Assembly (NCBI GenBank): GCA_016866975.1
Contig: VGKP01000013.1
Location: 1-26,357, forward strand
Length of the DNA stretch: 26,357 nt
Source of the DNA: Candidatus Pacearchaeota archaeon
GTDB lineage: Archaea > Nanobdellota > Nanobdellia > Pacearchaeales > GW2011-AR1
Reading direction: 5' to 3'
The position numbers and the translations under genes were made by a program. The notes under the pieces were generated by a model that saw only the letters and a program-made list of their open reading frames with translations, did not search any database and was not told the origin of the DNA. Within the stretch, counting starts at the first letter, position 1. Each line of letters begins with the position of its first letter. Shown here piece by piece: positions 7,401 through 25,829 of this stretch.

Positions 7401-7459
7401 TTAATTCTAAAATTAATTGGTTATATCTCTTTTTTAAACATCTATTCTTAAAAATCAAA

Positions 7460-7564
7460 AAAACGATGCGCCACTGCGGCTTAAACCTCGAGGATGTGAA
7501 TCCTCGATGGCAGTCAGGAATCTTAGATTCCTGATGAGCCGCAGTTTGATGCAGGCGCTCGTTT
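7460..7564 (+). repeat. Structured dispersed element, copy A (multibranch fold)
   Basis: AAACGA/TCGTTT, GCGCC/GGCGC and CTGCGGCT/AGCCGCAG enclose hairpins CGAGGAT-GTGA-ATCCTCG and TCAGGAATC-TTA-GATTCCTGA; homologous copy at 17396..17474. Confidence 0.85.
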
Positions 7565-7566
7565 CA

Positions 7567-7673
7567 CCAAGAACATTGTTCTTGGATGCCATCAAGAATA
7601 GAAGATTCTTGAGGTTTGGATGCTCAAGGAACAACTCCAGCTTAAAAGCTGGAGTTTTAGTCAAGTTCCTTGA
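7567..7673. repeat. Array of REP-like palindromes
   Basis: CCAAGAAC-att-GTTCTTGG (7567-85), TCAAGAAT-agaag-ATTCTTGA (7592-7612), TCAAGGAAC...GTTCCTTGA (7624-73) enclosing AACTCCAGCT-taaa-AGCTGGAGTT. Confidence 0.85.
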
Positions 7674-7680
7674 CATAAAA

Positions 7681-7902
7681 TGGCCTCGAGGGGATTTGAA
7701 CCCCCGACACCTGGATTTCCTAAGAAACCTACGGTTCGTCAAGGACGAAGTCCTTGAGCACGCTCAGGAATCTTTGATTCCTGACGTCTTGTGGGTCAAC
7801 TTCCCTCAAGAAAATGCCTTATGTCCCCGAGGAGGGTTCATAAGGGTAACGTAGTTCCCTTATTAAGAGTCCAGTACTCTGACCGGGCTGAGCTACGAGG
7901 CC
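7681..7902 (-). tRNA. tRNA-Lys(CTT) with 147-nt anticodon-loop intron; CCA not encoded
   Basis: Acceptor GGCCTCG/CGAGGCC+A, D arm GCTCAG..., anticodon arm CTGGA-CT-CTT-AA-TCCAG after splicing, T arm GGGGGTTCAAATCCCC; 75-nt mature tRNA; upstream TTTTTAAA. Confidence 0.95.
7717..7863 (-). other. tRNA-Lys intron (147 nt; 7716..7862 if spliced at 38/39)
   Basis: Closed by TAAGGGAACTACG/CGTAGGTTTCTTA stem; contains four internal hairpins. Confidence 0.9.
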
Positions 7903-7938
7903 ATAAAACACAAAGCAAGAGATGATTTAAAAAAGTAT

Positions 7939-8262
7939 CTAGAGTAATTTTATTCTATAATTATTAATGGCATTTCTGAAAAAATCTCTTACGGAGTGTT
8001 CAGAGGGAAAATCAAAATGACTGCATAATTTTGAAGGAGTACTGCCAATAAGAATATGATATAATAAAAAGCTATCGACATCAGGGTATTTTAATTGCAG
8101 ATCTCTGGCAAAATCTCTTCTATTTTTATCAAATACCCTGTCCTCATCTGCACTAGCCAATTCTTCAAACTGAGTCCTAACATGATGCATCTCTAAATTT
8201 TCCTGTGACGTCAGGCCTCTCGCCTCAAGTGCTATCCAATATCTTCCTATATCCCATTCCAC
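7939..8262 (-). CDS. Hypothetical protein (LLYHILIGSTP...FDF motif)
   Basis: 107 aa ORF; GTG start supported by TTTAAATA at -29..-22. Confidence 0.7.
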   Translation of the reverse strand: MEWDIGRYWIALEARGLTSQENLEMHHVRTQFEELASADEDRVFDKNRRDFARDLQLKYPDVDSFLLYHILIGSTPSKLCSHFDFPSEHSVRDFFRNAINNYRIKLL

Positions 8263-9956: not shown

Positions 9957-9960
9957 TCAC

Positions 9961-10115
9961 TCCTGCAGATGAAACTCAACTTTCATCCTGTCAAGAACTT
10001 TGTTCTTGAGCACGATCAAGAATTGCGTTAAACCAATTCTTGACGCATCAGAGTTTTTGAAAAAAATTACTGATGGGATGATATTATTCCTGCAGATGAA
10101 ACTCAACTTTCATCC
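9961..10115. repeat. 28-bp direct repeats (9961-9988, 10088-10115) flanking a 99-bp triple-hairpin insert
   Basis: TCCTGCAGATGAAACTCAACTTTCATCC is identical twice; insert has TCAAGAAC-ttt-GTTCTTGA, TCAAGAATTG..CAATTCTTGA and CATCAG..CTGATG. Confidence 0.92.
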
Positions 10116-10473
10116 CATCGGGATCCTTAGTGAATATGGCAGTTCCACCGTATCCATCATCAGTTATTCCATTATCTTCCATTTCTATTCCCATTTTACG
10201 TAAGGTTCCCTCTATTTCATCCAAGTCTTCTCTGGTATCAATCTTAAAAGCCCAGTGATTTAGTCCTAGTTTCTCAGGATCAAAAGTCTCGTCTTTTCCA
10301 ATTACCAATTGAGAATTCGCGAGCCATAGTGAAAACATTCCATCGGTCAAACCACAAACATCTTCCTCATCATGCATTACTTCCATCCCACATACATCTC
10401 TGTAGAAATCACGTGATTTAGAAATATTCCGCACAATCAAAGTAATATGATGAACTCCAGTTGTTGTAACCAT
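10084..10473 (-). CDS. VOC/glyoxalase family protein
   Basis: GVHHITLIVRNISKSRDFYRDVCG, LNHWAF, IFTKDPDG.KVE. Confidence 0.9.
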   Translation of the reverse strand: MVTTTGVHHITLIVRNISKSRDFYRDVCGMEVMHDEEDVCGLTDGMFSLWLANSQLVIGKDETFDPEKLGLNHWAFKIDTREDLDEIEGTLRKMGIEMEDNGITDDGYGGTAIFTKDPDGMKVEFHLQE

Positions 10474-25575: not shown

Positions 25576-25647
25576 AGAAATTTGATTGGACAATCCTTTA
25601 AAAACCCTTCCTAAAAAAAGTACCCATGTTCAGTAGAAAAAGAAATA

Positions 25648-25779
25648 CGGGTCCAGGAGGAATCGAACCCCCGTTACAGCGTTCCTTCGCTCCTTTCCAA
25701 AAGGGAGGTTGAACAAAAAGGAACAGTCGGGTTCCTTATACTCCGAAGCGCTGCGTTCTATCCACTAAACTATGGACCC
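25648..25779 (-). tRNA. tRNA-Arg(TCG) with 60-nt intron at 37/38 (25683..25742)
   Basis: GGGTCCA/TGGACCC+G acceptor; CAGCG-CT-TCG-GA-CGCTG after splicing; BHB core CTTC/GAAG with 3-nt bulges; 72-nt mature tRNA. Confidence 0.95.
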
Positions 25780-25829
25780 AACAAAAAGAGCCCAAACATC
25801 TTTTTTAATGCTTTGTATACAAATTCTAA

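Follow-up and report, generated by a model that had tools for sequence, protein, structure and literature searches.

The tRNA-Lys(CUU) Locus

The window (i.e., the whole stretch of DNA analyzed, 26,357 nt) is contig C13 of the Candidatus Pacearchaeota genome G000 (805 kb in 31 contigs, 38.8% G+C, 89% complete), the other contigs of which are referred to as C1, C2, C4, etc., while the other G-numbers (G007, G008, etc.) stand for its congeners. Its minus strand harbors a tRNA-Lys(CUU) gene (Table 1), to which the Rfam tRNA model aligns with a 149-position insertion within the anticodon loop, and the in silico excision of 7717-7863 leaves 75 nt that form a perfect cloverleaf recognized by ARAGORN as tRNA-Lys(ctt), the unspliced gene being wrongly called Val(gac) by the same program. 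The Rfam match and the spliced cloverleaf thus bear out the original prediction of a tRNA-Lys gene with a 147-nt intron, the edges of which may slide by −1 to +2 with the product remaining unchanged. Bases 1-41 show 100% identity with the intronless orthologues of G010, G007 and G015.

The TATA-like box upstream of the gene presumably serves as its promoter, and the T-run that follows the discriminator base is its likely terminator. Two open reading frames overlapping the locus (7507-7854 on the plus and 7455-7742 on the minus strand) had no Pfam match and are taken to be spurious. As AAG makes up 45% of the Lys codons in the genome, the tRNA-Lys(CUU) gene is probably needed, which is also suggested by its conservation: the gene could be recovered from 15 of the 16 congeners and is intact in all 15 of them, and the exons of the gene described here are intact as well, with the mature tRNA being only 1-4 nt apart from the congener orthologues and the changes being partly compensatory. 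The locus is syntenic with those of the congeners on both sides.

Table 1. Features of the tRNA-Lys(CUU) locus and of related repeats in the window.
Feature	Position	Strand	Basis
tRNA-Lys(CUU) gene, 222 nt including the intron	7681..7902	-	Rfam RF00005, 45.6 bits
5' exon, positions 1-37, anticodon C34 U35 U36 = 7867-7865	7864..7902	-	Rfam alignment and ARAGORN
Intron, 147 nt, canonical position 37/38	7717..7863	-	Rfam insertion, ARAGORN on the spliced form
3' exon, positions 38-73	7681..7716	-	Rfam and ARAGORN
TATA-like box TTTTTTAAA, putative promoter, 24-32 nt 5' of the gene	7926..7934	-	read from the sequence
T-run directly after the discriminator base (likely terminator)	7677..7680	-	read from the sequence
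Inverted repeat unit, intron nt 1-34, hairpin end at the 5' splice site	7830..7863	-	repeat matches
Forward unit, 5' half (purine-rich flank and GTTGACCCACAAG), intron nt 47-77	7787..7817	-	nhmmer unit profile, E = 9e-4
Twin-hairpin module, 50 nt, intron nt 78-127	7737..7786		hairpins 7764-7784 and 7739-7757, 6-nt spacer
Forward unit, 3' half, intron nt 128-147, ends with CTTAGGAA at the 3' splice site	7717..7736	-	nhmmer, E = 6e-3
AGGA, predicted partner strand of U33-U36 (7865-7868) in a relaxed motif (central helix, 4 bp)	7718..7721	-	predicted pairing
Composite repeat, 226 nt, abutting the tRNA 3' end	7455..7680		~125-nt base element and modules 7486-7536 and 7565-7614
Intergenic twin-hairpin module, layout as in the intron module	9989..10045		hairpin scan and alignment

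Repeat Composition of the Intron

The repeat that accounts for most of the intron is a unit made up of a purine-rich flank, GTTGACCCACAAG, a 7-9-bp hairpin and a CTTAGG end, for which approximately 25 profile hits at approximately 15 loci were found. Five 45-nt repeats arranged in tandem next to tRNA-Pro (C7:4853-5064) are matched by intron nt 1-34 at 94% identity in the inverted orientation, and a copy upstream of tRNA-His (C1:44509-44542) is matched at 85%. The stretch from nt 47 to nt 147 represents a unit in the forward orientation (GTTGACCCACAAG-hairpin-CTTAGG), the hairpin of which is interrupted by a nested module of 50 nt; within this stretch, nt 53-143 share 93% identity with C2:56452-56541 and 88% with C9:2215-2307. 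The CTTAGGAA-type end of the unit abuts the 3' exon in the introns of tRNA-Leu(UAA) and tRNA-Lys(UUU) as well. In the 5' half of the forward unit, 28 of 28 bases are identical to locus L064 of a Woesearchaeota MAG, where the unit is uninterrupted, and this identity runs up to the very position of the module in the G000 intron, the L064 unit being of the same subtype but without the module. These repeat matches along the intron therefore identify it as two head-to-head units and one nested module, and, because the units stand head to head, CTTAGG-type ends are found at both splice sites. The palindromic module that had been proposed to reside in the intron is indeed there and does have intergenic relatives, but it turned out to be nested in a larger unit, and nearly the whole intron consists of such units.

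Of the full unit copies that carry the same twin hairpin, the closest one (C9:2215-2307) stops 5 nt before tRNA-Leu(UAG), and, as the nearest strong TATA box is located some 150 nt upstream of this copy, it may lie in a long 5' leader that would likewise be discarded.

Both hairpins of the intron module (7739-7757 and 7764-7784) are perfect. The second of them differs from 7514-7534 in a single loop base, as the 20/21 identity noticed at the outset had implied, whereas shuffles of the window lead one to expect 0 such matches. The layout said to be common to the intron segment 7738-7786 and the intergenic 9990-10045 (hairpin, 6-nt spacer, hairpin) was recovered too, with a 79% alignment of 7738-7771 to 9990-10023. 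Throughout the genome, there are 58-59 perfect hairpins with YCRRGRAY stems, in which two Watson-Crick pair types occur at 6 of the 8 positions, and 20 hairpin pairs with a 6-nt spacer; single hairpins recur in differing pairings, and the modules are seen in both orientations, also outside introns. The first hairpin of the intergenic module (9991-10010), for instance, is identical at 20/20 bases to one in the tRNA-Thr(UGU) intron (C16:9434-9559).

The twin hairpin is a discrete module, as 50-51 nt are precisely present or absent in three carrier contexts. Near-identical units, one with and one without the module, are found side by side on C2 (C2:56463 and C2:56548), and the ~125-nt base element of the composite repeat that abuts the tRNA has more than 30 module-free copies in addition to 3 copies with both modules (51 and 50 nt, at fixed points), with joints in this base element in metagenome contigs skipping exactly 51 and 50 nt. 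When occupied and module-free sites were compared, no target duplication was seen.

The composite repeat itself begins right after the final base of the tRNA, for which it provides the T-run; the copies of its base element are near-identical and many are located at contig ends, and the region 3' of tRNA-Lys(CUU) in the congeners is only a spacer of about 60 nt. Within 9957-10119, the intergenic twin hairpin lies in a segment of about 100 nt that is bordered on either side by an exact direct repeat of 28 bp, itself a duplicate of the neighboring gene's end.

The Unit in Other tRNA Introns and Genomes

The unit also terminates the introns of tRNA-Lys(UUU) and tRNA-Leu(UAA) and, inverted, begins that of tRNA-Ser(GCU), the identity among these three and the Lys(CUU) intron being 83-92%. 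In all four introns, the CTTAGG end faces the splice site and contributes to the adjoining helix. The tRNA-Lys(UUU) paralogue (C1:46659-46795, minus strand), miscalled by ARAGORN as tRNA-Ser(tga), has exons that differ from those of Lys(CUU) by just two bases and a 62-nt intron with a strict bulge-helix-bulge motif and the unit at its end. In total, 3-4 of the ~25 unit hits fall into tRNA introns, which represent 0.8% of the non-ORF sequence (954 nt of intron vs. 115 kb outside long ORFs), corresponding to an enrichment with a P of ~1e-3 that is to be taken as rough, given that the copies are not independent. The introns of tRNA-Arg(UCG) (window 25647-25780, minus strand; 60 nt, strict splicing motif) and tRNA-Met look like diverged relatives of the unit, the 5' part of the former resembling an inverted copy. 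The 99-nt intron of tRNA-Met(CAU) (C9:23713-23884) contains an imperfect twin hairpin of the family and has 3 of 4 pairs in its central helix.

Among the 17 congeners, the exact unit motif is amplified only in G000, and two (G016 and G008) have diverged units with a twin hairpin, while well-conserved units were found in another genus of the family, in a Nanoarchaeota MAG (within its tRNA-Ser(GCU) intron) and in a 5' leader of Woesearchaeota. Tandem arrays of the unit in G000 (C10:23300-23600 and C4:13100-13340) have a self-complementary 17-nt stretch around CTTAGG, and neighboring array units form, on paper, strict bulge-helix-bulge motifs (9 hits in C10 and 3 in C4 vs. ~1 in shuffles), which could just as well result incidentally from a hairpin arm that pairs with a Shine-Dalgarno-like tail.

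The length polymorphism among relatives that had been suggested as a check is pronounced, as the congener Lys(CUU) introns measure 0 nt (five genomes), 22, 50, 52 (three genomes), 58, 60, 67, 68 and 130 nt, compared to the 147 nt seen here. They belong to at least five unrelated sequence families, and the modules of the 147-nt intron are absent from all of these orthologous introns. The 130-nt intron of G008 (locus L035, C5:24707-24911), in which the strict splicing motif is kept, corresponds to a 67-nt-type intron with a 51-nt twin hairpin within a hairpin loop; this 51-nt insert has no further copy in G008, and the likeness of the G008 intron to the Lys(CUU) intron of G000 is structural only.

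Origin of the Intron

Taken together, we consider it likely that the locus contains a working intron of the protein-spliced (EndA/RtcB) type, which was built up or rebuilt from dispersed hairpin repeats, these being tolerated there because the intron is discarded. Its transcription, splicing and circularization, as well as the direction and the mechanism of repeat movement, are what we infer as follows: the CTTAGG-type ends of the two head-to-head units would pair in the manner of terminal inverted repeats and thereby close the intron helix; the pre-tRNA would adopt a cloverleaf fold in which the anticodon arm is extended; a relaxed bulge-helix-bulge motif would be cut by EndA; and RtcB would join the exons into a normal 75-nt tRNA, with the intron being closed into a circle. 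The repeats themselves would have come from, or would have been exchanged with, intergenic copies at the DNA level by insertion or gene conversion.

That the intron is a splicing-protected haven for the repeat, as had been put forward, fits the enrichment of the carrier repeat in tRNA introns, but the same data may equally fit the reverse, namely, units that build and spread introns: since the units supply splice-site helices in several tRNA introns, they may build introns and not merely shelter there. A stronger version, to which we assign a low probability and which does not exclude the discarded-intron reading, would have the units as mobile intron modules, each of which carries half a splicing motif. 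This half comprises the CTTAGG hairpin end and a purine tail that would pair with pyrimidine-rich anticodon loops, so that the insertion of one unit, or of two units head to head, next to an anticodon could give rise to a spliceable intron or reshape an existing one; EndA might excise tandem units of a single transcript as RNA circles, and tRNA introns would then be a reservoir and a source of the intergenic copies. The hints in this direction are that CTTAGG always faces the splice site, that the array motifs are strict on paper, and that the unit is patchy, yet highly conserved, across distant DPANN (a tRNA-Ser intron and 5' leaders).

Splicing Motif and Splicing Machinery

As to whether the intron could be spliced, the strict motif (two 3-nt bulges, 4 bp between them and flanking helices), which most of the long introns of G000 have, is not formed by the Lys(CUU) intron. 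In the canonical register, its central helix has 2/4 pairs, the weakest of the 17 Lys introns compared, vs. 3-4/4 in the relatives and in the Lys(UUU) paralogue, the reason being that the CTTAGGAA end of the unit perfectly fits the anticodon loop of Leu(UAA) and not that of Lys(CUU). The repeat arrangement has, in other words, left the Lys(CUU) intron with a degraded bulge-helix-bulge motif. A register shifted by +1 is predicted to do better (pair probabilities of 0.47-0.69 vs. 0.001 for the canonical one), with UCUU/AGGA forming 4/4 pairs, a 6-bp inner helix, a proper 3-nt 5' bulge and an unchanged product, and with the 3' cut site placed in a 2-nt bulge opposite C32; as modeled, this would be a relaxed bulge-helix-bulge motif. 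A cryptic strict motif, better formed than the real one, can be drawn between the 5' splice region (7862-7869, minus strand) and intron nt 59-63 (7801-7803), with a 4-bp central helix and flanks of 4 and 6 bp, and a cut there would, according to the model, yield a dead-end product.

The single EndA found (170 aa, encoded on C9; RtcB is encoded on C1) aligns gap-free with the M. jannaschii alpha4 enzyme, is devoid of the insertion of the N. equitans enzyme and, judging by its sequence, looks like a strict alpha4 type. Enzymes of the alpha4 type had been regarded as strict, but DPANN alpha4 EndAs with a C-terminal loop (L3) go together with more disrupted tRNA genes (PMC5829648).

These observations raise the possibility of a gene that is being disabled: the CTTAGGAA end would have displaced the strand pairing with the anticodon loop, the transcript would be spliced poorly or never, and AAG would have to be read by Lys(UUU) through wobble. 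The poor canonical register, a unit end that suits another tRNA, the better cryptic motif at the 5' splice site and a seemingly plain alpha4 EndA all speak in its favor, but we deem it unlikely, as the exons are intact and nearly identical to those of functional-looking orthologues, the shifted register offers a 4-bp helix, a 3-nt 5' bulge and the correct product, and both the AAG usage and the 15 intact congener genes count against it. The link between L3-bearing DPANN enzymes and more disrupted tRNA genes could be invoked here too, although, with the loop apparently absent from this EndA, that point may not apply (PMC5829648).

A different partition of the intron, into an ancestral 63-nt intron and an 84-nt insertion at the 3' splice site, rested on an internal site pairing perfectly with the anticodon loop and was dropped because this site is the normal 5' flank of the unit.

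Predicted Fold of the Intron and Integrity of the Assembly

The anticodon arm and the intron together are predicted to fold at −64 kcal/mol (z = −5.1 vs. shuffles) into four hairpins closed by a 12-bp stem that adjoins the splice sites, which agrees with the original prediction in this regard. The intron-closing helix includes two G-U pairs, which are possible only on the tRNA-sense strand.

Such a fold might also be that of a functional domain under selection as RNA (a protein platform, a regulator or a stable circular RNA). Excised archaeal introns do circularize, compensatory changes keep the stems, and the strand-specific G-U pairs of the closing helix point the same way. Circularization of pre-rRNA flanked by bulge-helix-bulge motifs is likewise described (bioRxiv 10.64898/2026.03.23.713588). 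We nevertheless regard an RNA-level function as rather improbable, since the modules are found in either orientation and also outside introns, the orthologous introns of the relatives do without them, and DNA-level elements would equally be expected to be perfect palindromes. The long tRNA-Trp introns, which, as cited in PMC4090602, encode a C/D box guide RNA, are similar in being unusually long archaeal introns at position 37/38, but reading the sense strand of the intron revealed no C (RUGAUGA) or D (CUGA) boxes, and an Rfam search with E up to 1 returned only the tRNA.

A repeat-driven chimera joining two tRNA halves in a metagenome-assembled genome, for which one could cite an intron consisting of repeats and the many contigs of the assembly that end in repeats, is very unlikely, as a 1779-nt contig of lake-metagenome run X1 spans 7692-8150 and a contig of run X6 spans 7763-7902, both of them without differences, the gene has its two exons as well as its promoter-like box and terminator, and the synteny with relatives extends to both sides.

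Independent lake-metagenome contigs cover the entire intron without differences, although their sample may be the source of the assembly. No alleles lacking the module or the unit at the Lys(CUU) locus were present in the contigs of four lake-metagenome runs, the insert-free joints in such contigs coming from paralogous tRNAs and from other repeat copies, and neither exon-intron junction (5' or 3') was matched in exact-pattern scans of the metagenome contigs.

Relation to Known Introns and Repeats

The Lys(CUU) intron resembles other archaeal bulge-helix-bulge tRNA introns in its position (37/38), in the normal tRNA left on its removal, in the extended anticodon-arm helix and in the presence of EndA and RtcB, whereas its length (147 nt, much longer than most), its relaxed motif and its repeat-derived body set it apart. 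The closest precedent, as summarized in PMC4090602, is the intron families shared among tRNAs of Thermoproteales (transposed tRNA introns; Fujishima et al. 2010), where near-identical intron sequences reside in different tRNAs, as they do here in those of Lys, Leu and Ser; similar introns in tRNAs of different identity point to spread at the DNA level. Unlike in Thermoproteales, the G000 unit is not confined to tRNA genes, as copies of it also form tandem arrays and lie in the spacers of operons for ribosomal proteins and ahead of tRNA genes; moreover, it can hold a nested second repeat and belongs to a DPANN lineage. New features are the occurrence of copies beyond tRNA genes, the nesting, the turnover within a genus and the degraded motif.

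The mechanism of tRNA intron transposition was called unknown in that review (PMC4090602), and a 2026 census of Asgard archaea arrived at no general route by which tRNA introns arrive (bioRxiv 10.64898/2026.10.13.758758). The present case bears on how archaeal tRNA introns arise and grow, as, within one genus, a single tRNA gene may lack an intron, have a short one from any of several unrelated families or have a long one, and an intron that can be traced to intergenic repeats makes for a tractable natural system of intron growth and turnover. It is also a natural test of how much motif distortion is tolerated by an alpha4-like DPANN endonuclease, and, if the units do turn out to be mobile intron modules, it would provide a concrete DNA-level route for the gain of archaeal tRNA introns.

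On the side of repeats, REP/BIME elements (PMC3733652) are similar in being near-perfect 19-22-nt palindromes in tens of copies, mostly extragenic and often paired at a fixed spacing, and the 59 hairpins and 20 pairs of G000 are extragenic paired short palindromes in the same sense. The GTAG/CGTC tag, however, is absent from the G000 hairpins, the two flanking bases of which vary (CC, CG, CA, TG, AG), the Y1 transposase genes of G000 are flanked by unrelated hairpins, and the G000 modules sit inside the hairpins of other repeats and in tRNA introns. With MITEs and the PATEs of IS200/IS605, the module shares its small, gene-less and structured nature and its clean presence or absence per site, but it is not a classical MITE, since it lacks a target-site duplication, and it is not demonstrably a PATE, since it bears no likeness to the IS200-type ends present; known PATEs are also larger than a 50-nt module. 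Elhai et al. 2008 and Costa et al. 2002 reportedly described nested small dispersed repeats in cyanobacteria, including some within the group I intron of Nostoc tRNA-Leu. Those repeats are comparably very small, insert into one another and make the length of a tRNA intron vary between strains, but the introns concerned are bacterial self-splicing group I introns, whereas the G000 intron is of the protein-spliced type, with the repeats being part of its splicing motif.

No enzyme able to move the repeats was identified in the genome. A tyrosine recombinase was considered in view of the inverted arms and the 6-bp spacer, but, although two integrase genes are present, nothing ties them to the module. 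The 89%-complete genome yielded no reverse transcriptase match, and a viral origin found no backing either, as the unit pattern matched no viral contig and a BLAST search of the intron against phage records came back empty. A link to IS200/IS605 or RAYT was rejected because the three Y1_Tnp loci are flanked by unrelated hairpins. Fragments of IS200-type Y1 transposases lie at two contig ends (C6:1-220 and C12:26690-26912), each followed by the same hairpin with the stem CCCCACGG, and probably represent one insertion sequence, copies of which interrupted the assembly.
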